54,923 nt of DNA from assembly GCA_041309145.1 (NCBI GenBank), contig JBFZAG010000152.1, forward strand, positions 1 to 54,923, read 5' to 3'. The first letter of the stretch is position 1; each line of letters opens with the position of its first letter. This DNA comes from Candidatus Omnitrophota bacterium (lineage in GTDB: Bacteria > Omnitrophota > Gorgyraeia > Gygaellales > Profunditerraquicolaceae). Of the stretch, positions 42,001-54,923 are shown one piece after another. The position numbers and the translations under genes are program-made. The notes under the pieces were generated by a model. The model saw nothing but the letters and a program-made list of their open reading frames with translations. It was not told the origin of the DNA and did no database searches.

Positions 42001-45000
42001 ATGATGACATAATGGATATTGCCGAAGATACCTTCGAGAATAATTTCTTCCTGATGGATGAACAAGCGGCCAGAGAATTCCTGCGTAATCTCGATAACCT
42101 GGACGGCCTGGAACCTTGCGGAACTTGCGATTTCTGCGCCACCCTCAAGCCGTTGCCTTCATTGGAAGAGTACTATCTGCAGCAGAAAGCGCTTTTGGAG
42201 TTGCGTTTGTCCCACGCCAAGGGCAGGATCAAAGTCATTATTTTCGACCTGGATAAAACATTGTATTATTCCTCGGATTTGATGAGACGTTTTGTTGACC
42301 TTCTGGCCGAATATGTTATTGCGAATAAAAAAGACGTTGCCGCAGAAGATGTCAAAACGTTGCTCCGGGAGAACAAAAGCTATATCGCCACTCTCGCGCA
42401 TTACGGGCTGGACGCAGAATCCGCGCGCACTTATCTGTACGACAATATCGATCCGGCGAAGTACCTGAAACCAAATTATGTCCTGCGCAGGACGCTTTTG
42501 GAATTGAAGAATCAATACAGTCTGGCGGTTCTTACCAATAATTATAAATGTGTTGCCGAAAAGATATTAAGCGCCCTGTCTCTCGAGGATTGTTTCTCGG
42601 CGATTATCGGCCAGGAGCAATACGGGTTAGGCCAAGAGAAGCCGCATCCCGAGGCATTCACGACTGTCCTGGATTATTTGGATGTCGATCGAAACCAGGT
42701 GGTTATGGTCGGCGATGAGCTGGAGCAGGACATCAAAGCCGCTCAACGGATGGGCATTAATGCCATTTTGGTCAGTCGCGCCGGCGAAGATATTATCAAG
42801 AATGTGCCGGCAATATTGACGGATCTGGAAAAACAATATTCTTCCGGCAAGATCAAGGATGTTTCTCCTTTGCGCAACCGATTTACCTCTAAGATGGTGT
42901 TTAATCAAAGGAAGTCTTTCAGCTTACTGGGTAACGATAATAGCCGGGAGCTGAGTGATGAATGGGCAACCGCAATGCTATTAGGTAACATTTTTGGCAT
43001 GATGCTGGTAGGGGGTATTTTCTGGGCGCTCGACTTGCCGTTGTCCATGGGTGTTTTAACCGGGGCAATATTAGGTTATGGCTTAGCCCGATTTGCTCCG
43101 TTTATCAATCTCTATTTGACTCATCGCAGGGATTTCAGGTTCATGGAAAGAGTCCTGGATCGGGATTCCCGGGATATTTCGGATGAAATGTTGCAAATGG
43201 CGGCACCCGCATTCGGGGGATTGACCGAAAAATGCCAGCTTAAAATCATCAAAACCTGGCTTTCAGAGGGGCAAAGAGAAAAGGTGCGCAGGTTAATTTT
43301 GACCCCGGGCTGGGAGATATTCCGCAAGAAGACGCTGTTTTTCCAGCTGCCGGATGATGTCCGGAAAGAAATTGACTTCCGGATGATAGAACTTTCCGAG
43401 AAAGACGGCGGAAAAGAAGAAAATCGCCAAGAATTCGTTTTAAGATCGGAAGAAGATTTCAACCATATGCAAAAGCAAATAATCATACTTTTGTTCGAAA
43501 AAGATTTTCTGCATTATCGGGGCTTTCTTGGCGTGCTTAAATTTGCCCGTCATTACAGGATTATTCCTTCGGAATTATATAAAATATTAAAAATAAAAAG
43601 CTCATTATTCGAAGAAGATCTGGGGGGTCAGGAAACGGTTACATCTACCGTGGCAGGTGATCCCGTTTCTCCCCCCGCTTCTTTGAACAAAGACGGCGGC
43701 AATGACGATCAAACAGAGTTGAAGTGGATGGGGAATTGGCTGAGAGCCGTGGAAAAGGATTATCCCGGCGCAACAAAACGGGCGATCAAAACCAAGGTGC
43801 TCTGGTTAAACCAGATGAGCGGCAGTAAAAAAGACGACGCCCGCAAAGAGTTCGTCAGCCGGGTGGGAAGTATCAGGATGGCTAAATATCTGGTAGCGCT
43901 GGAAAGGATCCGGGGATACGCCCAGGCAGTCCTGGCCGCGGATAAGGCAGTCGAAATTCCGCTGATCTCTTATATCCCGATCCCTCCGGCCAAGATGAGG
44001 CGCAGGGTGATCGACGAATTGATCGAGAAAGAGGCCCGGATCAGCAAGAAGAACGCGGAACTTCTTCTGGATCCCACGGCTCTGGAAACGCGCTGGGATG
44101 AGATTTTCGATCCTTTAAGCGAGATCAAAAGAAATGTGTTCAGGGCGATCAACCGGAACGTGGAGAAAAATAAACCGGGGTTGCCTGTTATCGCTGAGCC
44201 TGACCATCAATTTGTGACCGCCTATATCCTGTTCCTGGCTCGGAACAACCAAATAACCACCAAATATAAGATCGACCAGTTCACGGCTTCGACCTTCGGG
44301 GAAATGTTGGAGTTATACAAAAAGGCTGTCGCCAAGCAATCGTACAAAGGCGGCCAATATAATAAGGAAGAAAAAGAGAAGTTAGAAAAAAAGATATTTT
44401 TAAAGAGAGTTCCGGTCCCGGAATTGAGCCGGAGGTTCCAGGTATTCTACGCGCTCCGGCAAAAAGGGGTTGAAGCAAACCCGGCCATGCAGGTAGCTGT
44501 GGCCTCGGATTTCAGGATAAGCAACCAAGTTTATCTGCACCTGCGCAAACAAAAAGATCCTTCAGGGGAACCGTTTACCCAGTCCCAGGCTGCTTCGATC
44601 GCCGCGGCCGCGGAACCCGTGGAAAGCGCGTACCAGGCCATTAAATTGCTGGAACAAGGCGAAAGCAGGAATATTGCCTCTGAGCTGGCTACTTCTTCAA
44701 GTCCTAAAAAGGCGATCAAGATCTATCTTATGCTCAAAGAAAAAACCAGCCTGCCAATGACCCGAATGCTGAAGATCGCTCTTAAGGCCGCCAGCCAAAA
44801 CGCGAATTTGGCGATCAAGAGAAACGAGCTGGACGGGGGATCAGCTTTACGCAAGGCTGAACTGGAATCTGATATAAATCATTTGCGGGAACTTCTTATC
44901 GGCAAGAACCGTTCTCTGGCTCCTCCGCAGAAGAACGCTTTAGCCCAAAAAGACGGCGGTTCAATTGTTCCCCAAAATTTTCTCTCGCTTTGGCAGGCTC

Positions 45001-48000
45001 TTGCCGAAAATAACAGTTTAAAAGATATTTTAGGGATCAGCCATTTGCAGTCAGTCCCGGACAAGGAAGAATATTTGCGTTTAGCTCTTGCCCGGGCAGC
45101 CAATGTTTTATCCCGCCCAACAGATGAAGTTCGCGCCTTTAAAGAAGTTTTCTTTGAAGACAATACGGTCATCCTCAGCTATGTCTTTTCCAAAAAACAG
45201 GTCTTAGTCCGGATCGCTCCCGATAATTTCGCGGATCACCTTACTGATACAGCTAAAATAATTTCTTTCTTCGGCCAGGGAACACGGGCGGATATAATTG
45301 CTGATCCCCAAGAAGTGAAGTCCCTGCTCAAAGAATTGCGTTTATACCGCAGCTATCCGCAGCTATACCAGATAGTTTATAAATTAAATTCTTCAGACCC
45401 GGCCATTGTGGTGGAAGCAATCCGCAGCCTGGAGGCATTACTGACAAAGCCGGTCCTTAAAGATGAAGCCCAGCGCCTTCTGGTGGCCGCATTGGGGATA
45501 GATAATTATCAGGTCCAGCGCCTGGCCCAGGAAATACTGAATAACGCTTTTAGCGGCCGTCCGGCAAGGTTTCCTAAGGCGCAACAAACCATGATCGCCG
45601 CATTAGGAGAAAAATTATCTTTAGCTAATATAGTTATCAAGGTCGGATTTAATCCTCTTAGACAAAAAGACAAGCTCCTGCGTTTCAAAGCCCAGCTGGC
45701 TTGCTCCAGCAATTACTCTAAAAAGATAACTTTTTATGACCTGGCTATAACCCCGGAAAGCGATGATTCCCTGAAACTGGCAGTAGCGCAAGCCGGCAGT
45801 TTGATCGAAGCCAATATGGGAATTGTCAATCTGGCCTTGCGAATAAGCCGGAATAACGGCCGCAGCTGGGAATATGTTGCCGGCTATGGGGCCAATGCGA
45901 CGATATTCTTTCAGCCGGATATTAAAGGCACAATGATCTATCAGGTCTGGCCGGCGCAGCTGGGGGTGTATGACCGATCGGGCCAGGTAAGCTATGATGA
46001 AACCGGAAGGGCTGTTCCCGGAAATTTCCAGACTGTTGAGAACATATTGCCGGAACTGAAGGCCCGAGGTTATACCAAGATCTATCTGATGGGCATCTAT
46101 CAATTGGACAAGCCGGAGAATATTATCGGCCAGGTCGGTCCGGACGCCTCATTGTTCTCTCCTTTAAGCTTCAGGGTGAGCAAAGAATTAGGCGGGGAAA
46201 AAGGGTTGGAAAAATTGATCAAAAAAGCCAGGGAGCAATTCGGCATAGGCATACTGGTCGATATTATTCCTCATGTGAACCAGAATTTCCGCGATCTTCC
46301 TGAATGGGCCATGGTTAAAGTCCGCAGAGGCACAGACAATAAGATCATCCGCAGGCTGGCTACTGACGGAGCGATCAACCATGAAAACGGCCTGCCCGTA
46401 GAGTGGCATGATTCAGTGATGCTGAACTGGCGGGACAAGCGGGTAGCCCAGGCTTACGCAGAGCTGTTGAAGCGTTTAGCCAAGCTGGGAATACAGGGGG
46501 TCAGGATCGATGTCGCCCATAACTTCGGATCAATGCTACCGGTGGATAATGGCTTGAAGAGCAAGCAAAAGCTTTTCGGCCTGGTTACTTCCTGGGAAAG
46601 GAACGAGTCCGGCGGGTTTAAAATCGTCAACGCCTGGGATAATGATCAGGCTAACCCGATCTTGCTGTATCTGGTTTCCCAGGTCAACCGGGAATATCCC
46701 GAATTCTTGTTTATCGGAGAAAACTACGGCAAGTACGTACAGGTGATCAAATCCGGAGTGGTCCCCATGGATTCCGGGACCCATGATGATCTGGAAAAAG
46801 TCATTCTGAAACAGGCTTCGGTCAAAGCAATCCTGAACGGACACTTCCGCTGGCTGTTCGCTGATCTGCCGCAAGGAAGCCAGCTGGTTTCGGCCCTGGA
46901 AACCCATGATTATTTCCGGGCCATGGATAAATGGCAAAGCTACGGAGCGCAAAAAATAAAAGCAGCGATCTGGGCCTGGCTGGCGACCACCCGGGGAGCG
47001 ATCTCGGTCTACAACCGCCAGGAGATCGGCGAGGTCCACAGGATCCGGATCGACAATTACACCAAGCATGATTACCAAGAAGCCGACCAACAGCGCTACT
47101 ACGCTCAGCTGGAATTTGAAAATAAATTCAAGGAAACCATCCAGGAATTTTACGGCCGGGCATTGAAATTGTATAAAGATCATCCCGCTATCAGCCAGGG
47201 GGCGAATTACATATTCGAAACGGATAACGACCGGGTATTCGCGATCGCCAGGTACGATGAAAAAGAAAACTTCATATTTGTAATAAATATGGGTTGGGAA
47301 ACCACCAAAGTTCACATAAATCTTTCAAGCCTCTGGCCGGCTTTAGGGGTCGTTGATTCAAGAAATGAATTTTACCAAGTCGCGGACCTGGAAAACAAAA
47401 TTCAGGAAATATTCACCGGAGAAGAATTAAGAGCGCAGAATATCGAAGTCACCCTCACTTCTTACGGAATTTCAATTGTAAGCGTCAAACCGGCCTTAGA
47501 AAACAGCGGCACTCGGCAGGACGGAGGCAAAGAGGATCTAGTTATTATCGCTTTGCGGGACGCTATAAATCGTTACGCATCCCAGGAGCGGGCTGTACGC
47601 ACGTCGGCCAACTACGCTTTTGTCCAGCTTGAGGAAGCGGTCCTGGAAAACGATCAAAGCAAGTTTAACGAGCGTTTTATTCAGCTGGCCAAGTTCGTTG
47701 AAGGCGAAGAGCGCTTCGGCGATCTGTACGCCGGAGACCTGACTTTGCTGATGCATGAATTATTGGGCAAGCACGCGGATAAAGAGGATACGGTCAAAGG
47801 CCTTTTGTCCCAAGCCGCGCAAACTTTTAAAGACGCGACAGCAAAAACAGTAATTGAAAAAGTGATCCGCTGGATAGACATAGGAGTCGTGGTCTCTGTA
47901 TCTTCTGAAGCAGCGCCTGTTTCCAAGGCAGGAGGCATGGCCAATGTGGTAGGAGAGAAGACCCAGGAGCTGGCCAAATCAGGATTAAAGGTCTACATTG

Positions 48001-51000
48001 TCAGCGACCTTTATCAGGATACTGAAAAAGGCCCGGGCCAGAGGGTATATTCCAAGGAAGAAACTATACAAAAATACAATATCCGATATACGGGCAAGAC
48101 TTTGTCGGTCTATATGGGCAGGCACGGCCAGTTCCCCGCAGGACTTGCCAGGACCAAGATCAACGGGGTTGAATATTTATTATTGGACCATCCTGCTTTT
48201 GCCGACGCGCTATACGGCTCAGGGGTATCAAAAGAGCACGAGTTGCTGCGGTCGATATTCCTTTGTTTCGGGGCCCTGGAAGCATTAAAAGCCAGCCACG
48301 TATATCCGCAGATCGTGATCGGCAATGACTGGATGTGCGCGCCTTTAATGGCCCACTTGAACTCAGCGCGTTCCGCGTATAAACATGATCCGCATTTCAT
48401 AAATACAACAACGATCGGCTGGGTGCATAACAACGGCCAGGATTACCAATTCAAGGTAGGGCGTTTCCAGGATGGAATCGACCTGTTGAGCAACCTGGGA
48501 TTGCCCGCGGAAGATTTCGGCTGGTTCATTGACCCGCACCGTTCGGAATTAATAAATCTTATGGCGGCGTTTATCCGGCATTCTCATTTCGTAGTGGCGG
48601 TAAGTCCGGGTCAAATGCAGGATTATCTGCGCAGCGACGATAAAGGCTGCGGAGAAGGCCTGAGCCATATTTTGCGGGAAAAATGGCAGCAGAAAAGGTT
48701 GTTCGCTATCACTAACGGCGTAGATATCCATAAGATCCAGGGAGAGTGGTTCGGCAAAACACTCTTTGACATACATTCCCAGCGGGATCTGGGAAAAATG
48801 TTAGCCGCCGCAAAAAAAGCTAAACAGCAAGCCCGCGAGGTCATTGCCGATGCCGGATTGTTCTGGCCGGCTTCCGGAGGAAGATCGAGCTTCCTGAACA
48901 AGCGGCATATGGTGGTCAATATGGTTTCCCGGATCACCGAGCAGAAAGGCATGAATTTAGTCGCGCCGTTTGTCCGGCGGGTGATCTCCAGCGGCAGATA
49001 TCCCGAAGTGGTTTTTGTATTCGGGGGCAACGGCGAACGTTTCTGGATGGACCGCTTGAATGAGCTGGTTTACGAATTCCCCGGCAAAGTAGGTTATTCC
49101 AACGGCTTTTTGCCGGATCCGCACCCGCTCAAGGTCTATCAGCGCACCTTCCTGGCCGGCGACCTGTTCATCGCTTTTTCAGTATGGGAACCGGGAGGGA
49201 TCTCTCCCATGGAGGCTCTTGCCTTTGGCGTGCCCTGTTTTGTCTCTGACAAGCAAGGCCTTAAATCTACGGTTAAGACCATAGCCATTCCGGAGTTTAA
49301 CCATATCCCCGGTCTTGACCGGGAGGAAAAAGGTTTTAACGGAGCGCGGGTTCCTGTGTACGAGTGGGATGTTAATTATACCCTGGATAATATAATGTCC
49401 GGCTTTGACCGCCTCTACCGGATGTGGAAGAACAGAAAAACCGACAAAAAATGGAATGAAATGACGATCAACGCGCTGCTCTCGGATAACAGCTGGGAAA
49501 AGTCGGTCAAGGATGTCGAGAACTTATTTAAATACGCCGTAAGCGGCAGCGAAGAATTTTACAATAGATTTTTTCCCGAAGAAAGCCCGGAAAATAAAGA
49601 CGGCGGCGATATCGATCCGATCGTGATTGTTTCGCCGGCGGCGCAGCCTATTTCTTCCGTAGGCGGAATGGATAGAGTGGTCAAAGATATTGCGGTCAGG
49701 CTTGCGGAACGAGGCCACGAGGTGATTATTATTACCCCGCTCTACAAAGATGAGTGGATCGAAAGAATAGCGCATTTAACTGATGCCCAAAGCTATGTGC
49801 CTCCCGAGGAGTTGATAAGAAGATATCAGATCGATTTCTCCGGCCAGGAGAAAGCCAGGTTCAAAATCGGCGGTAATGATGTCTCTTCGGCGGAAGTCGG
49901 CCGGACAAACATAGACGGCGTGGAATATCTCGTGCTCAGAAATAAAGATATCGCCTCTCTTCAGGGCGGCTCTTTTATGGGATATGTCCCGGATCCCGCC
50001 CAGTTTTTGCCGCGCTGGGTATCGCGTTCCTCAATCGCATTTTCCCTGGCCAGCTTAGAGGCAATAAGGACACTCGGCATTTATCCGCGCATCATCGTGG
50101 GCAATGACTGGATGTGCGGGCCTATGGCCGCGTATCTTAAATCTTCCGGATGGCCGTATGCCGGAGATCCTCATTTTGCCTATACGCACAGCATTGCCTG
50201 GGTGCATAACGCAGGCCCGGGATATCAATTCCTGGCCAGCCGTTTTGACCCTTCTACCAAATACGATTTGTTGCTTGATCTGGGATTGCCTGAGCAAGAA
50301 TTGAAATCTTTCGTTGATCCTCATAACCCGAACATGATCAATTTTCTCGGGGCAATGATCCAGAATTCAGATTACGCGGTTACTGTAAGCAAGGGGCAGA
50401 TGCAGGCATTCCTTGAAGAGCCTTTTGGGGTCCATGAACAGTTAATCCAGAAGTCGCGGGAGCGCAGGTTATTTGCAATTGAAAACGGGATATTCCAAAG
50501 AGAAAAGCAAAGAGAGTGGTTTGGGTTATCGGCCTTTGACATTGCCCCGCAGAATACCGCCGCGTTTTTAGATTCCGCCTATAAACAGAAGGCCTTAGCC
50601 CGCAAAAAGATTTTTGACGGTCAATTGTTATACTTCCCGGCCTATGTGGAGAGACACACTCATTATTATGGCATTCCTGAAGAAGTATATCAAAGATACA
50701 ATTCTTTGCCTGCCCGGATAAGTAGAGGGATGGAGTCTGTTCTAAGCGGGGTTTCCGGCCGCACAGATGAAAGTGATTTTGTGGTCACTATGGTCTGCCG
50801 GATAACCGGACAAAAAAATATTCCCCAGGTATGTGATTTTGCAAAGATCATCCTGAATGACAGAAGATATAACTCTGTGAAGTTTATTTTTGCGGGCGAA
50901 GGCGACCGGTATTATATGAAATGGCTTCTTGGGTTAGCCGCAGACTACCCCGAACGGGTGAGGTATTCCTATTCATTTGTGACAGAAGAAACAAAGAATT

Positions 51001-54000
51001 CGGTCTTGCTTTCCGGAGACCTCTTCATTTCTTTCGCGAAATGGGAACCAGGAGGTATCGCAGTCAAAGAAGCGCTTGCCGCAGGGAATGTCTGCCTGGT
51101 ATCTGATGTCGGCGGACATAAGTCTTCAGTTATTTCTGGATTCAACGGCAGCCGTTTTTCCGTCCTTGAATCCGAGCACAGGACTGTCCGGGAAATGATC
51201 GTGCCGGAGTTCGACAAGCTGTTTTCATTATGGCAGGAAAGAAAAACCGACAACAGCTGGAATACCATGGTCAAAAACGCCTTGTTCTCTGACAACCGCT
51301 GGGACAGGTCGATGGTCGACATCGAAAACCTCTTTAATTACGCGGTTACCAGTGGCGAAAACACGAAGCAGCCGGACGGAGGAAAAGTAAAAAATGACGT
51401 GTCGAAATGGCTGTTAGTGTTTGATTTTGACGGGACCATGACTGATCTTGACAAAAAGAGCGAATATTTTGAGAAAGTTCCTCCGGCTTTAGAGAATGCC
51501 TTGATCAGAGCGAGGAATAAGGGAGCCAGGATTGCGATATTATCGGGAAGAGCCCCCAACTTTGTTTATGATCAATTAAACCAGAAGACACAGTTATTGA
51601 GCGAGCTCAAATACTCCGGACAAGTAGCGTTTTTGGGAGAGCTGGGCGGCCATATCGCTTATTGCACTGACCGCTGCGAGTTCGTCAAAGACTCGGATTA
51701 TTCGCTGGAGCTTTCCGAAGAGTTAAAAGCTAAGATCTTAGAGAAGATAAAAAACAAATTGACCGAGCTCGGGCTTATCGACCATCTGGTAATGCAGGGA
51801 ACTGTCGGGAAAATCATCCTCAATGACCGCAAGCAGTCGTCGCGCACGCTGAAGTTCGAAGGAAAAGAGTTTGAAGCTTATGCCCCGGAGATCTTTGATT
51901 ATCTCAAAAGGGAACTGAAAGCCGACAGTGTCTATGTGTTCAACAACAATAATGTCGCCATCGACATTGGTTTGACCGCCAAAGGGCTGGCTTTAAAGGA
52001 ATTTGCCGGGAGAGCCAATATCGCGATAGAAAACATATTTATAGCCGGAGACAGCGGCAATGACCTGGATATGCTTTATCTGGTGTTCGAAGGAGCGATT
52101 GGCGCATTTGTCAAAAATTTTGAGGCGATCCCCGAAGATCTTAAACCTAAACTGATTTTAGTCAAAAATCCCGAAGAATTAGGTTGGCTTCTCGAGAAGA
52201 AGTTCGATCTCAAAGACGGCGGAAACCAGATACCATTTCCTTTCCCCAACCTGTTTGATAACCAGCGCGGCTGGAACGATCCGGAATGGCTGGAGGCTTA
52301 TTTAGTGGCGGGCGCGCTGCTCAAGGTCGCGGATGACGTTAACGCCGGCATTCCAGCGGAGCAGATCGCGGAAGCAGCAATCGGGGAGTTCGCGGATCAC
52401 GGTCTTGCCGCAGACCGGGAAAAGATCGTTCAGCGACTGGAAGGCTTGCGTCGCAGAGGACTGATCCGGAACAGCGATAATAATATGGCGATCCGTCCGG
52501 AGAGCACGGTTTATCTGAATGTCGAACCGCGGGTGGTGGCGGTCTGGGCGGATGACTTTAATTATATCCAGTCGGATATCGAGCGGGCGATCGTCGCCGG
52601 AAGGAACGAGCTTTTAAACACCATAGACGCTTACAGCGGGATAGTCGCGCAATGGCCGGAATACCCGGTTGAGGCCAAATATCCGGTTTTGCGCGCGATC
52701 GTCCAGATGAGCCGGCCGGGGCAGAAAATTCTGGTTGATTGGCTGTCCAGCCGCGGTTTTTCGAACCGTACTTCCCTAGTGGATGCGATCCTGCTCATGC
52801 TGGATTTTGAAAATGCCAGAAAAGACTGGCTGTCATACCGCGCGCCCCAGCTTTTGGGCCGGAACATTTATCTTGTGGCCGCGGAGATCTCTTTGCTGGC
52901 CGGCGGACTGGGCCGGGTGATGCAGTATCACGGGACCGCGATGCACCAGCTTTGCGCGGGCAAAGCCAAAGTCATCTATGTCGAACCGGATTATCCTTTT
53001 ACCCGCGATCAAACAGGTAAAGTCATTGATCTGCATTTTGATAAACTGGCTATACCTGTGCGCGGGATCAGGAAGCTTGATCAGCGTTTTAGCACCTTCG
53101 TAGCCGGCAAACCCGTAGAGTTCGAAGTGTCTACCGGGATAAACAGCCTGGGGGTTCCGGTATATATGATCAAAGATGTCCCGGGCTATTATGTGAATAT
53201 TCTTTACGAATACAGCACTCCGGAATCACCGGCTTCTAATTTCGAGTTCACCGAATTTTTCACCAAGGCAACGCTGGAGTTGATCCGCTATCTGGAAGTC
53301 CGGGAAAAGCGCGAGCAGGGCTCCGCGTATAAAGCGCCGCTGGTTGACGCTAACGACGGCCAGGCCCTGCCGCTGGTGGCCTGGCGCCGTATTTTTTACG
53401 GAGAAAAAGAAAAAATTGTGCGGGGGGATTCTTCAGAAGAAGATATTACTGACGCCTATGAGATATTGCGCGACGCGGTATTTTGCGGCACAACCCATAC
53501 TTACCGCAACCGGGTCATGATCGGCGGAGATATCAAAGCTTTCGGTTTGCCATTCTTGAAAGCCGCCGGAGTTTCCGATGAATGGCTGTGGATATTTTTG
53601 CGCAAAGAGCTTGAAGGCTCGCTGCTGTGGGATTTTACCAGCGCCGGGCTGCGCTGCGCTGACGTGGCCAAGGGGGTAAGCGCCATCCACGCTTACGAGA
53701 TGAATGCCCGCGATCCTTCGGTCAGGCTTTTCGGCTTGACGAACGGAGATAACCGTTTATATTCCTCAGAATATTTCCGCCAGGCGCTCGCTCAGGCCGG
53801 CTGCGTTGATTATGAAGACGCTTCCGGCGAGCAGGTCGCCGCGGCCAAGCGGATCTCCAAGGAAGCGTTGGGGCTTAATCCGAGCCAGATGGTCATTTCT
53901 TATTCCGGCAGGCTGGTCCCGGAAAAAGCCGGACAGGAGCGGGCTTTCTTTGAATCCAATATCGAGGCCATGGTCAAGGCCGGCATCCAGGTTATTATTT

Positions 54001-54923
54001 ACGGCAATGCCCAGCCCTATGAAGCCAGCCAGCGCATCGCTATCAGGCTGGAACAATTAGCCCAAAGACTGGAGCGCAGCAATTATCCGGGCAGATTCGT
54101 TTTGAAAACAAAATTCCATATCGAAGAGCAGCGCGCTTTGCTGGCCGCCAGCGATATCCAGATCCAGGATTCCGACCGCTACACCGGAGCTTCCGAATAC
54201 ACCGAGGCGGATGTTTCCGCCAATGCCGGGCTGCAGATGGGCGCGCCATTCTGGGAGGGGATCATCCAGCACCAGGGAGCGGTGATCAACCGCCGGCTCC
54301 AGAAAGGAAACACCCTGATCCCGGCAACTTCCGCTCCTCAGTCTTACCTGGATATCATTTTCTGGGCCAACGATGAATTCAAAGCCAACCGTTTAAGCAA
54401 GTATCAGGCCCAATCGATCAGATTCAGCCGGATCCTGGAAGCTTCTCTTACCGCCGGAGAATATTTGCGGCTCTGGAACGCCGCTTTCCATAATAAAAGG
54501 CCTAATTTCACCCGCCCAAGAATTTCCGGAGAGGTCTACAATACCGAGCCAATAGCCCTAACCGCGTATCTGGAAGAAGGAGAGCGGGCTATTGAGAAGG
54601 AGGGCAATACATTCTTTATTAAGGGAAAGGTTGAGGAATTGCGGGAAAATCTGGAATTATCAGTAGCCATAAATCTGGAAACTTTTGATGATGTCTATTC
54701 CGGCATCGGCCGCCGCGGGGTCGTGCCTTTCGAGATGATCAGCGTCAAGCTGGTAAATGAGTATGGGCTGGTTTTGCCTCTTAGCGTCAAGCGGGCCACC
54801 CACAGCAAAGCGGAATATTACCTTATTATCCCCAAAGACCTGGCGCTGCCCTTTGAAGGAAATCTGGAGATAACTTCCGGAGTCTGGAAAGTCGCTTTGC
54901 CAATGAAAATAATCGCCCAAGAG
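3..54923 (+). CDS. Single giant multi-enzyme ORF, partial at both ends (>18,307 codons); mosaic of enzyme-like, membrane and DNA-binding modules separated by a recurrent K/R/Q-D-G-G delimiter
   Basis: Manual translation of + frame 3 runs from nt 3 (ALYFFREGIV...) to nt 54923 (...LPMKIIAQE) without TAA, TAG or TGA. The ORF track lists no + strand ORF in this frame, as expected if the frame never closes inside the window. All recognisable enzyme signatures listed below lie in this one frame. Confidence 0.9.
126..1163 (+). other. Module bounded by DGG sites: polytopic membrane segment, no enzyme motif recognised
   Basis: Long hydrophobic runs: IGLAALFILSLFGISPLGVLFLIPAYATAFILW (144-242), LMTGVLLVGMVLFAGFVPAVSLDMLLSGLLVAVFIGGVAGFSLFACIV (about 294-440), FGLWAVLTAAMGLLSW (840-887) and VVLMFGAISILAVNFAPAGIIQFAVAIAMAGITGIYLGLLIY (966-1091). 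Confidence 0.5.
1600..2060 (+). other. Tentative JAMM/MPN+-like metalloisopeptidase motif set
   Basis: KEIAGLIV (Glu codon 1644-1646, resembling the E-x2-G-x-L element), a beta-strand-like APVARY followed by HSHP (1908-1919), then SIPD (1965-1976). Canonical spacing is H-x-H-x7-S-x2-D. Here 16 residues separate the second His from the Ser, so the call is weak. Confidence 0.3.
2829..2906 (+). repeat. Copy A of conserved 26-aa peptide GALVGGNMAVKEGIHVEAADKKRDGG
   Basis: Codon-by-codon translation. It shares the identical 23-nt string gcgctggtcggcgggaatatgg with copies B and C. It ends in DGG and is preceded by a degenerate KKDGD (D-G-D codons 2811-2819). Confidence 0.85.
2907..3344 (+). other. 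Cupin-fold module, copy 1 (146 aa, bounded by DGG on both sides)
   Basis: EDIHYQRPAPGQHRPRIVLMLVLEGKIKARAY...GNLIMFTQAYYIEYLEDTRMLEIKQGPYPG. It is a clear paralog of 13500-13922 (shared IHY[QH]xPAPGQ..PR, LEGKIK, ILEIKQGP[YF]PG). Confidence 0.5.
3609..5290 (+). other. Membrane-embedded family 2 glycosyltransferase (GT2, processive-synthase-like architecture); catalytic part about 3846-4660
   Basis: TM runs lie before (3609-3775) and after (about 4749-4905 and 5157-5290) a GT-A domain. Motifs: LPSLAIVVPIKD, CIVAIDDDLS, LLLDKDTYIAPG (DxD), RVSEDLDLAMRL (ED) and HRYVYGALQ (in the position of the QxxRW motif). Confidence 0.7.
7020..7700 (+). other. HIT-superfamily (GalT branch) NDP-hexose phosphorylase/nucleotidyltransferase-like domain (GDP-hexose phosphorylase-like)
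   Basis: FCDLCNN (7041-7061), NQFPIFNNHVLLLP, and FFNSYGAGATQGHFHGQ with the H-x-H-x-Q signature at 7317-7331. This resembles the NSxGAxATxNHxHFQ motif of GDP-L-galactose/GDP-D-glucose phosphorylases. Confidence 0.5.
8067..8600 (+). other. DUF218/YdcF-like domain
   Basis: ADILILLGNENLEVLEKAAEV...SEAEVMAKILIAKGVPEEKIKLEARSRNTNENVQYT...DTVIVMQTPLQQRRA. The E-x-R/S-S-R-NT-x-EN signature is typical of DUF218. Confidence 0.5.
8667..9395 (+). other. deoC: Deoxyribose-phosphate aldolase (DeoC) domain
   Basis: LASRIDHTNLKADATEQEITRTCQEAKDHGFALVAIRP..., VKVIFENCYLSDEQK, GADFVKTSTGF (Schiff-base Lys codon 9201-9203), GATAQDVSLM, VKAAAGIRN and GASRIGTSAG. Confidence 0.8.
9426..10020 (+). other. P-loop nucleoside-monophosphate kinase, archaeal-type cytidylate kinase-like
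   Basis: It starts directly after NIDGG with HVLAINGEHGAGKSTLAKELAKITGLPIFSGGAIMRGYAEKRGMSVKAYTEKF (Walker A plus an SGGxxxR-like NMP-binding element). Confidence 0.55.
10230..11090 (+). other. Possible phosphodiester glycosidase (NAGPA/DUF2233)-like domain
   Basis: Weak resemblance only: ISAPTIIKDSKIL..., ALDQGNQLVFYAFSGKSSREGLTLGQIQEYLKAQGIKDAMILCNGSDVSM (compare the GxTLxELAxxLxxLGxxxAxNLDGGGS pattern). Confidence 0.25.
11240..12450 (+). other. Radical SAM domain 1 with Cys-rich C-terminal extension
   Basis: CNFVCWGC (CX3CX2C, 11277-11300), AIIFTGGGEPTMHP and GLRVGLFTNGSLL. C-terminal cysteines occur in KCLACSW and RCPPICACH (about 12213-12430), suggesting a possible auxiliary Fe-S (SPASM/twitch-like) region. 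Confidence 0.75.
12700..13450 (+). other. Zn-ribbon plus class I SAM-dependent methyltransferase
   Basis: CAICGN...VKCAADG is followed by GKVLEIGFASGYVLEEL (motif I, about 13005-13050), FDAVLLYDLLEHVPDP and ILKPGGIVIIRMPN. Confidence 0.7.
13500..13922 (+). other. Cupin-fold module, copy 2 (141 aa, bounded by DGG on both sides)
   Basis: AIHYHTPAPGQSAPRQEILIVLEGKIKGLIYD...GEAIQFTQAHNIEFMEDATILEIKQGPFPG. It is a paralog of 2907-3344. Confidence 0.5.
14040..15050 (+). other. Radical SAM domain 2
   Basis: FPCNNDCRHCT (CX3CX2C, 14100-14123), VIAGNSTEPLLYP and LRLYSNFYYG. Additional C-terminal cysteines occur in FPACHYW, TPCTATAEG and LCPECTRGE. Confidence 0.7.
15280..15880 (+). other. 2H phosphoesterase (LigT/cyclic phosphodiesterase)-like domain, copy 1
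   Basis: Two H-x-[TS]-x motifs: STYHITVF (HITV, 15423-15434) and PFVHMSLARI (HMSL, 15702-15713). Confidence 0.5.
16180..17300 (+). other. PHP (polymerase and histidinol phosphatase) family metallophosphoesterase domain
   Basis: FVDFHVHTFFSDG (HxH, 16191-16199), LKAIGVVDHNT, VIPGIEM, AVLAHP and ILGSDSHYNN. Confidence 0.7.
17436..20020 (+). other. GH94-type glycoside phosphorylase (cellobiose/chitobiose phosphorylase-like) module
   Basis: TRDSAQDIYG (about 18585-18610), DDHLWIILAVVVYIKETGD, LPWMLRADWCDAFN (18945-18968, in the position of the DWND motif), [53 protein letters not shown]. Confidence 0.75.
20037..20135 (+). pseudogene. Internally deleted remnant of a ROK-kinase module (only N-terminal EKI... 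and C-terminal ...FILxxxKAVSxELAxR retained), still in frame
   Basis: EKIDTAFEKGFFILIAGKAVSKELADRKGSNDV aligns with the start (EKINIVF, 28542) and the tail (FAKGLKDESGKDLFILTVRKAVSTELASRG, about 29409-29500) of the intact ROK module. Shared nucleotide strings include ggaaagcggtttcaa. Confidence 0.55.
20136..20213 (+). repeat. Copy B of conserved 26-aa peptide GALVGGNMVIREGIHVEVADKKKDGG
   Basis: Codon-by-codon translation. It shares the identical 23-nt core gcgctggtcggcgggaatatgg with copies A and C. Confidence 0.85.
20260..20900 (+). other. 2H phosphoesterase-like domain, copy 2 (second motif degenerate)
   Basis: NHMHCTIGAIRG (HCTI, 20436-20447) and NRAHVAIGYF (HVAI, 20718-20729, with Ala replacing Ser/Thr). 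Confidence 0.35.
21609..22575 (+). other. ROK/ASKHA sugar kinase-like domain, copy 1
   Basis: GVFLGFDFGGTGIKMAFL, TIRNDGDCGAAQAVF, VTYLGLGSGVAFGQIDEAG...GEAHF and VVVGGGL. Confidence 0.65.
22630..23400 (+). other. HAD-IIB (Cof/sugar-phosphate phosphatase-like) domain, copy 1
   Basis: YLFDVDATVT (DxD, 22644-22652), VVLCSGRPF, FDIVAKDADKYMAIEYL and AAVGDSGTTEGNDF. Confidence 0.65.
23650..24200 (+). other. Pol-beta-superfamily nucleotidyltransferase domain (GlnD/DUF294-like)
   Basis: GLFVYGSNSKGWAVNGSDFDFALV (G-S ... D-x-D signature), followed by a helical region. Confidence 0.45.
24640..24860 (+). repeat. HEAT/leucine-rich-variant-like helical repeats
   Basis: VRHALAQNPRATPKILSSLA / VRLMVARNSRTPMKTITRLL / EVVRKEAAKSL show a periodic pattern. 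Confidence 0.35.
25056..26560 (+). other. GH3 glycoside hydrolase (NagZ/beta-hexosaminidase or beta-glucosidase-like), N- and C-terminal domains
   Basis: LPLLFTINQEGGRLNEF, AWNFAPDADL, RSFGSDP, ATAKHFPTYG (about 25386-25408), ESIMLGHV and GTIVTDGLSMGAL (about 25611-25650). The C-terminal domain has ADIIIVQTYN, VVVVSTGAPYD, GRLPVAIPG. Confidence 0.8.
27280..28420 (+). other. Weak RelA/SpoT-like (alarmone synthetase-type nucleotidyltransferase) resemblance
   Basis: LYAPFAATLGLTALAFRL and VYIPLAYRLGFDSLASKLRNSCF (compare the YAPLAxRLG element), NDYIGLRI and YFELQIYEESTFVFSKAEYG (compare the EVQIRTxxMHxxAExG element). Motif spacing is imperfect. Confidence 0.2.
28542..29500 (+). other. ROK family sugar kinase module, copy 2 (starts directly after KDGG)
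   Basis: EKINIVFSMGGTKLAIAAVD, GIAFAGPVD, QITNDCISALLGE, MVFIIGTGVNGAAAKNGKVHLG...ELGHN. Confidence 0.75.
29604..29681 (+). repeat. Copy C of conserved 26-aa peptide GALVGGNMVVKEGVHVEVAEKKKDGG, inside a 29-aa unit (29595-29681) flanked by DGG on both sides
   Basis: Codon-by-codon translation: SQDGG|KKFGALVGGNMVVKEGVHVEVAEKKKDGG|DIAK. It has the same 23-nt core as copies A and B. Confidence 0.85.
29780..30990 (+). other. Tandem SIS (sugar isomerase/sugar-phosphate binding) domains
   Basis: SIS 1: NIYFIAAGRSGQAG...GDLVIVISGSGSTPSV...ADIVAITAKP. SIS 2: KVYISGDGISHKIALMF...DDVAIIIGAYTRED...GAKTIIIAG. Confidence 0.7.
31090..31450 (+). other. Small HExxH (zincin-like) putative metallopeptidase segment
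   Basis: GELTLFVNPNICRAPPEQRKVILRHELFHLLDPEKSE, with HELFH at 31281-31295. No further metzincin or gluzincin element was recognised by eye. Confidence 0.3.
31560..31800 (+). other. Transmembrane cluster in DGG-bounded module 31467-32147
   Basis: ILNAIITLVNILILSAEIYVSAFIISFLAGTVFGPSFAFFDFFVSGIAALAIASFVVLAGSV. Confidence 0.5.
33355..33840 (+). other. Transmembrane cluster at the start of DGG-bounded module 33249-35402 (remainder unassigned)
   Basis: ILCPIGITAILLVTLGKSIGYVPAFLVALAYVGSVFARAAV, LEGLFIFTLINGLILWTCL, FTIWAIQLPANVILGAFY and IGSAFFMQIFYNYLFTFL. Confidence 0.45.
35403..36890 (+). other. Module of repeated winged-helix / HTH DNA-binding-like domains
   Basis: VKMGIYKVLEALPGKKLTRLEIEKATGLKTGVVKKELRRLRKAGIVAQDKKGRDFQYGLS; ISRAEVARMLRDENKINRN; KSYSKTAQAFKEKGKIIDRNTISRII; AKVYLAFLLKAEGKNAREIAAAQEAPIKRVTNNYFLILAKAGLIEHKKPGFYKVTLEG; LKLLRVLALLAEKVAIANIAQKLGMEQSALKKEYLRFLDREAGLIMLS. 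Confidence 0.5.
36909..37500 (+). other. coaE: Dephospho-CoA kinase (CoaE)-like module (204 aa between DGG sites)
   Basis: It starts directly after QDGG with IKIIGLAGIVGSGKTEVAARL...EIIEMDKVGDQA (compare the CoaE N-terminal pattern xxIGLTGGIGSGKS...DADxxA). VVIEAAVL and EVWLVEA follow. Confidence 0.7.
37521..39080 (+). other. gpmI: 2,3-bisphosphoglycerate-independent phosphoglycerate mutase (iPGM) module, with its own Met directly after KDGG
   Basis: MIRPVALIILDGWGYKEDGSDNAI..., LPDAEMGNSEVGHLNIGAGR (catalytic Ser codon 37701-37703), FMGLISNAVVHSD, ALTDGRDSP, RYYAMDRDNRWDR, FNFRADRAREI, ETEKFAHVTFFFNGG, NYANPDMVGHTG, MADHGNAE and APTVLEIMGL. Confidence 0.9.
40300..40900 (+). other. Possible isoprenoid-synthase-fold segment (weak)
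   Basis: FMQMADDLKDF (DDxxD, 40824-40838), with an upstream degenerate Asp-rich element MVKIGDNLLD. There is no other support. Confidence 0.2.
41235..41820 (+). other. Transmembrane cluster at the start of DGG-bounded module 41196-43412
   Basis: WIPFFIFVGPLSLMGIPCLLLLGSIAPVYLAFVYLAFIPASLVISNVIVARF, VMFAASIIYADATFVWLGVLLLAPQFALPAFIVYHAMSVFFFVRMLLGV and ILSIGGLLSGILFIPAEIAVDLLI. Confidence 0.5.
42225..42790 (+). other. HAD-IA hydrolase (phosphatase) domain, followed by another TM pair at about 42966-43118
   Basis: IKVIIFDLDKTLY (DxD, 42246-42254), LAVLTNNYK, GQEKPHPEAF, VVMVGDELEQDIKAAQRMGINAILV. The following TM pair reads ATAMLLGNIFGMMLVGGIFWALDLPLSMGVLTGAILGYGLARFAPFINLYL. Confidence 0.75.
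46030..47480 (+). other. GH13 alpha-amylase-family catalytic domain
   Basis: All four GH13 conserved regions are in order: GILVDIIPHVN (His codon 46272-46274), GVRIDVAHNF (nucleophile Asp codon 46509-46511), LFIGENYG (Glu codon 46719-46721), LETHDY (His-Asp codons 46905-46910). Confidence 0.75.
47880..49540 (+). other. glgA: GT5 glycogen/starch synthase-like domain, copy 1
   Basis: IGVVVSVSSEAAPVSKAGGMANVVGE (compare the GlgA pattern SEaaPfaKtGGLaDV), IVIGNDWMCAPL, WVHNNG, ITNGVD, VSRITEQKG and WEPGGISPMEALAFGVPCFVSDKQGLKSTV. Confidence 0.8.
49620..51350 (+). other. GT5 glycogen/starch synthase-like domain, copy 2 (tandem paralog of copy 1)
   Basis: IVIVSPAAQPISSVGGMDRVVKDIA, IIVGNDWMCGPM, WVHNAG, IENGI, VCRITGQKN and WEPGGIAVKEALAAGNVCLVSDVGGHKSSV. 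It is collinear with copy 1 over its whole length. Confidence 0.75.
51405..52190 (+). other. HAD-IIB sugar-phosphate phosphatase-like module, copy 2
   Basis: WLLVFDFDGTMTD (DxD, 51423-51431), RIAILSGRAPNF, IDIGLTAKGLAL and FIAGDSGNDLDML. Confidence 0.7.
52863..54490 (+). other. GT35 alpha-glucan phosphorylase-like GT-B domain (divergent)
   Basis: The order of elements matches bacterial/archaeal alpha-glucan phosphorylases: AAEISLLAGGLGRV, VDANDGQALPL, CGTTHTYRNRV, AKGVSAIHAYEM, FGLTNGDNRLY, VISYSGRLVPEKA, VIIYGNAQPYE, ASDIQIQDS..TGASEYTEADVSANAGLQMG. The usual EASGTSGMK (PLP-Lys) string is not evident. Confidence 0.45.

Follow-up and report, generated by a model that had tools for sequence, protein, structure and literature searches.

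The window, by which the whole stretch of 54,923 nt is meant, is covered by one stop-free reading frame on the plus strand (nt 3-54923, 18,307 codons, translation table 11) that is open at both ends. The motif DGG occurs 39 times in this 18,307-aa frame, against about 5 expected, and five of its copies, at 44952, 47520, 49599, 51375 and 52215, set off five units, U1 to U5 (nt 44961-54923). The units, their junctions and their motifs are as follows.

44952-44960, plus strand: DGG junction before U1
44961-47519, plus strand: U1, 853 aa, GH13 (Pfam PF00128, low-confidence AF2 model, Foldseek)
46257-46277, plus strand: GH13 region I, VDIIPH438V
46497-46520, plus strand: GH13 region II, GVRID517VAH, with D517 the predicted nucleophile (aligns to GFRMDV of a solved GH13)
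46713-46730, plus strand: GH13 region III, IGE587NYG, with E587 the predicted acid/base
46899-46913, plus strand: GH13 region IV, ETH649D650Y
47520-47528, plus strand: DGG junction
47529-49598, plus strand: U2, 690 aa, GT5 glycogen/starch-synthase-type GT-B module plus a 120-aa helical extension
Plus strand, U2 motifs: SKAGGM 47922-47939; NDWM 48321-48335; HN 48426-48431; RITEQKG 48927-48950; WEPGG 49185-49199
49599-49607, plus strand: DGG junction
49608-51374, plus strand: U3, 589 aa, second GT5-type enzyme, beginning 5 residues past DGG
Plus strand, U3 motifs: SSVGGM 49653-49670; HN 50205-50210; RITGQK 50796-50819; WEPGG 51042-51056
51375-51383, plus strand: DGG junction
51384-52214, plus strand: U4, 277 aa, HAD-IIB phosphatase (Hydrolase_3, TIGR01484)
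Plus strand, U4 HAD motifs: I DFDGT 51420-51437; II SGR 51540-51551; IV GDSGND 52047-52064
52215-52223, plus strand: DGG junction
52224-54923, plus strand: U5, 900 aa, ending at the window edge (AF2, Foldseek, hhalign, homologues)
Plus strand, U5 family motifs: LAGGLGRV 52896-52919; NDGQ 53349-53363; TTHTYRNR 53490-53513; SGRLVPEKAG 53904-53933
54168-54212, plus strand: U5 family motif DSDRYTGASEYTEAD

An earlier note on this DNA had described five modules fused in series in DGG-delimited units, and the single frame, the DGG positions and the Pfam/NCBIfam matches bear this out. Every unit between DGG copies amounts to a whole enzyme and not a fragment. The DGG copies lie exactly at the native N-termini of units: the iPGM unit has its own Met immediately after DGG, the GT5 domain of U3 begins at unit residue 5, and stand-alone homologues of U5 align from the residues immediately following DGG. 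Additionally, DGG is found at the equivalent unit boundaries in the relative L004, and the gain and loss of units occurs at DGG boundaries. The unit N-termini and the gain and loss of units at DGG give indirect support to a polyprotein with putative proteolytic cleavage at this motif. Two minus-strand ORFs within U1 (45621-46103 and 46536-47315) had no family matches and are interpreted as shadow ORFs opposite the coding frame.

U1 opens with a helical part (about aa 1-200), which is followed by a beta-sandwich (about 217-331) and the GH13 (beta/alpha)8 catalytic domain (about 340-745), and it closes with a beta domain. The Alpha-amylase profile PF00128 matches it with 36.2 bits (E = 5.4e-9), above the gathering score of 22. 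The segments IPH438, GVRID517VAH, GE587N and H649-D650 match the conserved regions of solved GH13 enzymes and are unchanged in three homologues, the most distant of which has 29% identity. The AF2 model was built from six sequences only and, with a pLDDT of 59, is too poor for a subfamily assignment, and the top Foldseek matches of this low-confidence model are all GH13. GlgE (5cgm) is the best sequence match among solved structures (E = 4e-4), and U1 was not assigned to GlgE, the match being weak and confined to part of the sequence. U1 has the GH13 catalytic regions in common with GlgE (GH13_3) and other GH13 transferases and hydrolases, and its region II carries a His three residues past the nucleophile (RxDxxH). 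This spacing is a feature of GlgE and of the transferase domain of the eukaryotic debranching enzyme. As points of difference, region IV of U1 is of the classical HD type, and the Foldseek matches of the low-confidence model lean to neopullulanase/TVAII-type enzymes.

U2 and U3 are matched above threshold by the two profiles of a GT5 enzyme, Glyco_transf_5 (PF08323; 114.4 bits and 9e-33 for U2, 93.9 bits and 1.6e-26 for U3) and Glycos_transf_1 (PF00534; 42.4 and 53.1 bits, respectively). Both align over their full length to solved starch synthases. Like GlgA and the starch synthases (GT5; PDB 3vue, 4hln, 6gne, 2qzs and 1rzu), they possess both domains of the GT-B architecture together with the invariant core. 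This core comprises the GG loop, the acceptor Asp-Trp, the His-Asn, the Arg/Lys phosphate pair and the donor-glucose Glu, residues whose roles are as described in PMC6086201, and it is invariant in 82 representative relatives, of which 13 are parts of proteins 1,500 aa long or longer. U2 keeps the Lys of the KxGG motif and U3 has Ser in its place, at a position that varies among the relatives too. The two modules differ from GlgA and starch synthases in their inserts of 100-200 aa, in a Met in place of the acceptor-site His and in their setting within a giant ORF, and they share only about 28-31% identity with an ordinary GlgA of 480 aa. A disabling effect of the His-to-Met replacement in "NDWH" was considered and rejected: the His of "NDWH" is a variable acceptor-site residue and the strictly conserved His belongs to the His-Asn motif (PMC6086201), which is intact here. 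The GlgA equivalog model (TIGR02095 / NF001898) gave 143.9 bits for U2 and 111.8 bits for U3, both below the cut-off of 328.45. Because these scores are so far under the GlgA cut-off, U2 and U3 may use another donor and acceptor than glycogen synthase does.

U4 is matched by Hydrolase_3 (1.9e-12) and by the HAD-IIB model TIGR01484, for which its 56.1 bits exceed the cut-off of 41.8. The models of specific sugar-phosphate phosphatases (of the sucrose-6F-P, trehalose-6-P and Cof types) did not reach their cut-offs in any of three cases: SPP gave 32 bits where 107 are required, Cof 51.6 where 137 are required, and PRK14501 17.5 where 634 are required. The first four modules had been annotated in the earlier note as a GH13 domain with all four conserved regions, two GT5 glycogen-synthase-like modules and a HAD-IIB sugar-phosphate phosphatase-like module. 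The GH13 and GT5 annotations agree with the PF00128 match and its invariant regions and with the PF08323 and PF00534 matches and their intact cores, and the HAD-IIB assignment is upheld by the TIGR01484 score and by motifs I, II and IV. Judged from their residues, the catalytic cores of the GH13, of both GT5 modules and of the HAD-IIB unit are intact. Catalytic residues are thus present in four of the five modules and are not missing throughout, a possibility that the note had raised against itself.

The fifth module had been called alpha-glucan-phosphorylase-like, and this name has to be given up. In U5 a helical N-domain (1-205) precedes a GT-B core of the GT5/GT35 type (about 214-760), after which comes a C-terminal beta-sandwich (about 775-900). 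The Pfam/NCBIfam search gave a weak GT5 match (3.3e-5), PF08323 is a precomputed match on most U5 homologues, and hhalign against the GT5 modules gave a probability of 98.8% (E = 4e-17). The GT35 model TIGR02094 reached 15.3 bits, under its threshold of 191.7, and PF00343 did not match U5. The AF2 model of U5 has a pLDDT of 92, and Foldseek aligned it to 6gne, 3fro and 3vue with target-normalised TM-scores of 0.67-0.77; for starch/glycogen synthases these scores were 0.75-0.77 with an rmsd of about 5 A, versus a target-normalised TM-score of about 0.5 and an rmsd of about 13 A for GT35. The predicted fold of U5 is therefore nearer to GT5 than to GT35. With the alpha-glucan phosphorylases (GT35; GlgP/MalP) U5 shares the GT-B fold (Foldseek probability 1.0). 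The only GT35-like signal in its sequence is a weak match to the strand and loop of the active site, "...DxSxQxSxAGxEASGTxNMKxxxNGxL". This match is collinear over the EASGTxNMK segment, where the aligned U5 segment reads TGA[AS]EYTEAD, and it puts Asp at the position of the PLP Lys and Gly/Thr at that of the preceding Glu. The identification of U5 as a GT35 phosphorylase was rejected on the sub-threshold score, the missing PLP-binding Lys and the fold.

Compared with the GT5 core, the KxGG Lys of U5 is Leu (LAGGLG), the His-Asn is split (HTYRN) and the Glu is replaced by Thr/Gly (RYTGA). The acceptor Asp and the Arg/Lys pair are kept, and U5 has a large set of invariant polar residues of its own. 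U5 may be derived from GT5: it retains the Gly-Gly loop, the Asp for the acceptor and the Arg/Lys pair that binds phosphate, but neither the Lys that binds the donor nor the Glu for the donor glucose. Having lost these two residues, it would have a changed or a non-catalytic role in binding glucan or phosphate. The loss of canonical catalytic residues from U5 could be extended to the whole cassette, so that most of its modules would catalyse nothing and would serve a surface or adhesion protein as beads that bind glucan or give it structure, their likeness to enzymes being ancestral only. Every module scores well under the equivalog cut-offs and an adhesin is a frequent reading of giant ORFs, both of which are in line with this proposal, yet relatives with as little as 22-29% identity still have the GH13 triad, the GT5 core in both modules and the HAD motifs, and the invariant polar set of U5 also speaks against it. 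A bead-like role for the whole set is very unlikely.

The nearest relatives of the window are Omnitrophota MAGs and V. archaeovorus LiM. The association of GH13, GT5 and U5 recurs across independent Omnitrophota-type assemblies at 22-66% identity, and it has been maintained across deeply diverged relatives. The order in P0023 is GH13-GT5-100-aa unit-U5-GDE_C-GH13 (54-64% identity), and L004, L040 and L042 have the order GH13-GT5-GT5-U5-GDE_C-GH13 with DGG at the matching boundaries. In the more distant L024, L043 and L044 (22-34% identity), U5 has a gene of its own, and the next gene downstream begins with GH13-GT5. U3 and U4 are variable inserts, which the nearest relatives either lack or have at another position. 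U5 runs into an amylo-1,6-glucosidase (GDE_C) module and then a second GH13 in the closest relatives; an exact-match search of metagenome contigs with the end of the window gave no match, so the continuation of U5 past nt 54923 is drawn from these relatives only. Stand-alone U5 genes of 802-1,012 aa are found elsewhere, and those in Deltaproteobacteria and other MAGs are orphans with unrelated neighbours, outside glg clusters. The expectation that the modules are ordinarily separate genes in glg-type clusters thus holds for U5 as far as a stand-alone existence is concerned, but not for the cluster.

The relatives also bear on the reality of the fusion. The source organism is uncultured, and the frame might in principle be an assembly chimera, or a set of distinct genes that only look continuous through errors of sequencing or frame, or through an unusual genetic code. 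Such an origin is extremely improbable: the 54.9 kb have no in-frame stop in the standard code, the identical fused order is found in independent assemblies from different studies, and the closed genome of V. archaeovorus LiM (Velamenicoccus) has a U5 homologue (56% identity) within an open frame that spans the entire 22.7-kb locus.

Giant ORFs with many enzymes have been reported from Omnitrophota as "Archaeovorins" (West-Roberts et al. 2023, bioRxiv 10.1101/2023.11.21.568195). According to that preprint, GT5 is the commonest glycosyltransferase of these proteins, their cleavage points are stated to be unknown, and glycogen is proposed as a product made from degradation products. Nielsen and Lui (2026, bioRxiv 10.64898/2026.06.07.730766) record PF08323 in 153 long Omnitrophota proteins and define a "multi-enzyme metabolic cluster" class. 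The giant multi-enzyme class was delimited as one ORF of more than 10 kaa with many Pfam families, none of them dominant, with TM helices and from Omnitrophota; the ORF studied here exceeds 18,307 aa, has more than 25 distinct families and about 10 hydrophobic clusters, and is of Omnitrophota lineage. It shares with the published proteins GT5 (PF08323), GT1-group domains, ROK kinases, radical SAM, HAD, methyltransferases and TM clusters. The fusion belongs to this published class and is not peculiar to this genome, and the cassette adds one more example to Omnitrophota giant multi-enzyme genes that are already in print. The class is described as lists of domains, and neither the ordered block of GH13, GT5, (GT5), U5, GDE_C and GH13 nor the U5 family and the DGG unit boundaries are described in the portions of these sources that were available. 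Both the family of U5 and the GH13, GT5, U5, GDE_C, GH13 block, which recurs, are parts of alpha-glucan enzymology that lack annotation.

The earlier note had read the ORF as a carbohydrate storage and turnover pathway written as one protein. A GlgC-type NDP-glucose pyrophosphorylase (NTP_transferase), a branching enzyme (GlgB) and PF00343, the mark of a true GT35, had no match in the 18,307 aa of an ORF that runs past both ends, and the pathway claim fails for the window. Because sugar activation and branching are absent from the window, the cassette is an alpha-glucan-active set and not a full or self-sufficient glycogen pathway. Among the upstream modules that the note had listed, two ROK kinases, SIS, iPGM and GH94 were confirmed by profile, while the HIT-type NDP-hexose phosphorylase had no Pfam match even at E <= 1 and was dropped. 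The frame also carries radical-SAM enzymes, a CoaE-like kinase and a TrmB-like wHTH.

A cytoplasmic version of the storage and turnover pathway would have the fusion replace operon regulation and enforce a 1:1 stoichiometry, with the modules being the only copies in the cell. The ROK, radical-SAM, CoaE-like kinase, iPGM, SIS and TrmB-like wHTH modules need cytoplasmic cofactors, which fits this proposal, as do a hydropathy scan that predicted no TM helices inside U1-U5, the deltaproteobacterial U5 homologues, which are without a signal peptide, and the route from degradation products to glycogen suggested by West-Roberts et al. 2023. It is nevertheless an unlikely account, given that the pathway is incomplete in the window and that U3 and U4 come and go among close relatives, which argues against a fixed stoichiometric design. 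Additionally, a signal-peptide-like N-terminal segment is present in 10 of the 12 non-deltaproteobacterial U5-bearing ORFs with a visible N-terminus, and ORFs that begin with GH13-GT5 also open with a signal- or anchor-like segment. Because the N-termini of relatives are of this kind, a cytoplasmic pathway with enforced stoichiometry is one of several readings.

The same N-termini would suit a Sec-targeted precursor whose units would act on alpha-glucan, by building, binding or stripping it, in the periplasm, at the cell surface or inside an attached host or prey. TM helices or a signal peptide are present in 94% of long Omnitrophota proteins according to the literature, in which the metabolic content of a 147-kaa protein is assigned to the outer face. 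Chlamydiae secrete glycogen enzymes, and Criblamydiaceae and Waddliaceae have a glgA-glgB fusion (Chem Rev 2024, PMC11046441); secreted GlgA and GlgB that exploit host UDP-glucose would be a precedent. The likeness is that of a host-dependent bacterium of the PVC superphylum with alpha-glucan enzymes handled in an unusual way, by export or fusion, and it is a functional analogy only. The loss of donor-binding residues from U5 would also suit life without nucleotide sugars. On the other hand, the GT5 modules retain the nucleotide-sugar-binding residues, ATP-, SAM- and DNA-dependent modules lie in the same ORF, the N-terminus of this ORF falls outside the window, and the membrane topology of the block could not be read from the hydropathy scan. 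A Sec-targeted precursor is a possible explanation, with the odds clearly against it.

The reading that is preferred here, with a probability of about 0.6, is that of a conserved alpha-glucan-active cassette in a giant membrane-anchored multi-enzyme gene of the Archaeovorin or "multi-enzyme metabolic cluster" type. In this cassette the GT5 modules would lengthen an alpha-1,4-glucan using nucleotide-glucose, and the GH13 unit, together with the GDE_C and the second GH13 expected just past the window, would trim or transfer and debranch the glucan. The HAD-IIB unit would strip phosphate from a sugar-phosphate by-product or intermediate, and the units may act either tethered on the membrane-anchored chain or freed at the DGG junctions. 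Signal- or anchor-like N-termini are hard to square with synthesis that depends on nucleotide sugars, unless the modules face the cytoplasm or work inside another cell. The variable presence of U3 and U4, which are not conserved members of the block, and the lack of canonical catalytic residues in U5 also count against the cassette as preferred here. A more far-reaching combination would replace storage in the cytoplasm of the producer by an exported, DGG-processed set for making, binding or stripping alpha-glucan, either outside the cell or in an attached host or prey, much as Chlamydiae use secreted GlgA and GlgB. U5 would then be the founding member of a new GT-B family intermediate between GT5 and GT35, one that needs neither the canonical Lys/Glu nor PLP; this combination is speculative and rather doubtful.

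The giant genes of Omnitrophota are among the longest known, and it is still debated whether they act as a single chain or as a large number of proteins, and also which side of the membrane the products work on. The activity, cutting and location of the units would distinguish real metabolism from a delivered tool kit and from a surface coat. The cassette is a small and well-defined test bed for this, with five enzyme-sized units and sharp DGG boundaries, of which four units have intact catalytic cores and simple assays and the fifth, U5, is also free-standing elsewhere.

The region at nt 44961-54923 is a real, conserved cassette of predicted alpha-glucan activity carried by a giant gene of a known kind. 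Read with the standard bacterial code, nt 3-54923 form a single stop-free frame of 18,307 codons that is open at both ends, and the longest ORF in any other frame of the window is 259 aa. Two minus-strand ORFs within the cassette region gave no family matches. The tripeptide DGG occurs in frame 39 times versus ~5 expected, and its codons vary from copy to copy across the window, so the motif is primarily one of protein sequence. As the earlier note stated, DGG copies bound five units in the last 10 kb:

nt 44952, 47520, 49599, 51375 and 52215, + strand: DGG copies splitting the last 10 kb into five units
nt 44961-47519, + strand: U1, 853 aa, Pfam Alpha-amylase (5.4e-9, over the gathering score)
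nt 47529-49598, + strand: U2, 690 aa, Glyco_transf_5 (9e-33) plus Glycos_transf_1
nt 49608-51374, + strand: U3, 589 aa, Glyco_transf_5 (1.6e-26) plus Glycos_transf_1
nt 51384-52214, + strand: U4, 277 aa, Hydrolase_3 and S6PP, with a HAD-IIB subfamily model over cut-off
nt 52224-54923, + strand: U5, 900 aa, ending at the window end, a weak GT5 match with glgA and alpha-glucan phosphorylase models sub-threshold

Codon choice at the DGG sites is biased, with GAC for Asp at 33 of 39 sites versus 38% ORF-wide (p = 2e-9) and GGC for the first Gly at 27 of 39 versus 36% (p = 3e-5), which suggests that DGG may also be under a nucleotide-level constraint, e.g. recombination, RNA processing or translation. 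Lys precedes DGG at 21/39 sites, and a conserved peptide of ~26 aa, GALVGGNMxVxEGxHVExAxKKxDGG, immediately precedes DGG in three copies (window 2823-2906, 20130-20213 and 29595-29681).

The family assignments proposed earlier for the five modules are largely right (GH13, GT5, GT5 and HAD-IIB), the exception being GT35 for U5. All four conserved GH13 regions, as had been claimed, are present in U1 (IPH438, R515-x-D517-VAH, GE587N and H649-D650), are kept in an alignment with homologues at 65% and 29% identity, and fall on regions I-IV of solved GH13 enzymes in collinear but low-scoring alignments. In GT5 enzymes the donor is bound by a KxGGLGDV loop and the acceptor by Asp-Trp-(His/Gln), a strictly conserved His-Asn is located over the anomeric carbon, and a Glu binds O3 of the donor glucose (PMC6086201). 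The Gly-Gly loop, Asp-Trp, His-Asn, Arg/Lys pair and Glu are all retained in U2 and U3. These core residues are invariant in all 82 near-full-length U2 relatives from a 1.84-billion-protein representative search, including 13 in proteins that reach 1,500 aa or more. Wide variation in the same relatives is seen at two other positions, the KxGG Lys (Ser in U3) and the acceptor-site His (Met in U2 and U3). Because the core residues are kept and invariant in relatives, U2 and U3 look catalytically competent; they are not named GlgA because both score far under the equivalog cut-off of the NCBIfam GlgA model. U4 carries HAD motifs I, II and IV. Catalytic residues are present in four of the five modules, as the GH13, GT5 and HAD motifs of U1-U4.

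The fifth module had been called phosphorylase-like, and the U5 family profile does match GT35 phosphorylases among solved structures, weakly (E 0.06-2, its only matches) and over the EASGTxNMK segment; a single-sequence search of solved structures gave no match. GT35 membership is ruled out, since the PLP lysine position of this segment is Asp in U5, the phosphorylase model is sub-threshold and the fold is nearer GT5. An AlphaFold2 model from 25 homologues (pLDDT 92, pTM 0.93) predicts a GT-B core preceded by a helical N-domain and followed by a C-terminal beta-sandwich. In Foldseek comparisons this model superimposes better on starch/glycogen synthases (target-normalised TM-score 0.67-0.77, rmsd 5-6 Å) than on glycogen phosphorylases (~0.5, ~13 Å), and profile-profile comparison relates U5 to GT5 modules with 98.8% probability. 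U5 shares the acceptor Asp and Arg/Lys pair with GT5 synthases, whereas Leu replaces the Lys of KxGG, Thr replaces the donor-glucose Glu, and the His-Asn pair is interrupted (HTYRN). Alignment and predicted fold make U5 a divergent family that derives from GT5 and has invariant motifs of its own.

The U5 family is found both as stand-alone genes of ~800-1,150 aa with unrelated neighbours, whose conserved part starts at the residues that follow DGG in the window, and as part of long open frames in Omnitrophota MAGs. In the closed genome of Velamenicoccus archaeovorus LiM, a 56%-identical U5 lies in a frame open across the whole 22.7-kb locus (NZ_CP019384.1, ~75.2-97.9 kb); the junction motif there is not DGG, and no GH13 or GT5 units flank this U5 within 10 kb on either side. 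P0023, a 6,102-aa Omnitrophota fragment (54-64% identity), has the order GH13-GT5-[100-aa unit]-U5-GDE_C-GH13, where GDE_C is an amylo-alpha-1,6-glucosidase module. The order on RA.bin37-type contigs (57-66% identity; L004/L040/L042) is HAD ... GH13-GT5-GT5-U5-GDE_C-GH13-UDP-glucose dehydrogenase, and DGG marks the same boundaries there as in the window. A distant lineage (22-34% identity) encodes U5 separately, in a gene directly upstream of a long one beginning GH13-GT5. This retention of block order argues that the association of GH13, GT5 and U5 is old and conserved. In the sequences compared, U3 and U4 are variable inserts; at locus L041 a U4-like HAD-IIB lies elsewhere, between iPGM and GH13. 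In the two nearest relatives (L004:10010-15710; P0023 aa 3869-5766), U5, GDE_C and the second GH13 form one ~1,900-aa unit with no DGG between them, which suggests that the U5 unit of the window probably extends beyond nt 54923 and that the window ends mid-unit. Whole units come and go precisely at DGG boundaries: at aa 3765-3869, P0023 has a 100-aa unit without assigned function where the window (49599-52223) has U3 and U4. No DGG separates GH13 from GT5 in P0023. The more distant GT5-bearing P0024 (an Omnitrophota protein of 6,476 aa) has only two DGG copies and repeated R-S-E-x-R strings, e.g. ARSEMR, KRSEVR and IRSEAR.

The fusion is not peculiar to the source genome, because published classes of Omnitrophota giant proteins carry GT5. 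West-Roberts et al. (bioRxiv 10.1101/2023.11.21.568195) give GT5 as the most prevalent glycosyltransferase of the Archaeovorin class and speculate that degradation products are converted to glycogen, and Nielsen and Lui (bioRxiv 10.64898/2026.06.07.730766) define a "multi-enzyme metabolic cluster" class and report 153 long Omnitrophota proteins with PF08323. The earlier description of a pathway written as one protein is overstated, as Pfam searches found no NDP-glucose pyrophosphorylase, branching enzyme or true phosphorylase in the window, and a complete pathway with enforced stoichiometry is unsupported as stated.

A cytoplasmic location of the cassette would fit the ATP-, SAM-, nucleotide-sugar- and DNA-dependent modules of the same ORF. 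Against it, outside the Deltaproteobacteria, nearly all related ORFs with a visible N-terminus that carry U5 or GH13-GT5 start signal-peptide- or anchor-like, and the published topology predictions and "coat" proposal for V. archaeovorus indicate the outward side. A hydropathy scan, which does not fix topology, found no strongly hydrophobic segment within U1-U5, the nearest preceding one being ~640 aa upstream. Chlamydiae, which likewise belong to the PVC superphylum, secrete both GlgA and GlgB and draw on host UDP-glucose (PMC11046441), so an exported or host-directed action would be conceivable by analogy, though rather unlikely. Signal-peptide- or anchor-like starts occur in stand-alone and mid-size U5 or GH13-GT5 ORFs (L001, L003/L011, L012, L018, L020, L023, L024/L043/L044, L025, L027, L030-L032 and L036), several of which then show a conserved "...IHIQDAHTN..." head; deltaproteobacterial U5 genes are without such a start.

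Upstream of the predicted alpha-glucan cassette, Pfam identifies a GT2 synthase, DUF218, kinase-like domains, NAGPA, radical-SAM enzymes and methyltransferases, as well as PHP, GH94, GH3, two ROK, SIS, CoaE-like kinase, iPGM and HAD modules; the "HIT-type" module reported previously lacks Pfam support even at E<=1. Several DGG-delimited units of 270-760 aa likewise have no Pfam match at E<=1 (39108-41186, 31458-35393, 20205-21152 and 3-3335). The GT2 module (window 3336-5420) is of the "Glyco_trans_2_3" synthase type and is flanked by several hydrophobic segments, so the ORF that carries the cassette also contains a membrane-embedded polysaccharide synthase. The unit at window 35394-36899 has weak, sub-threshold TrmB/winged-helix matches, an unexpected passenger in a membrane or exported protein.
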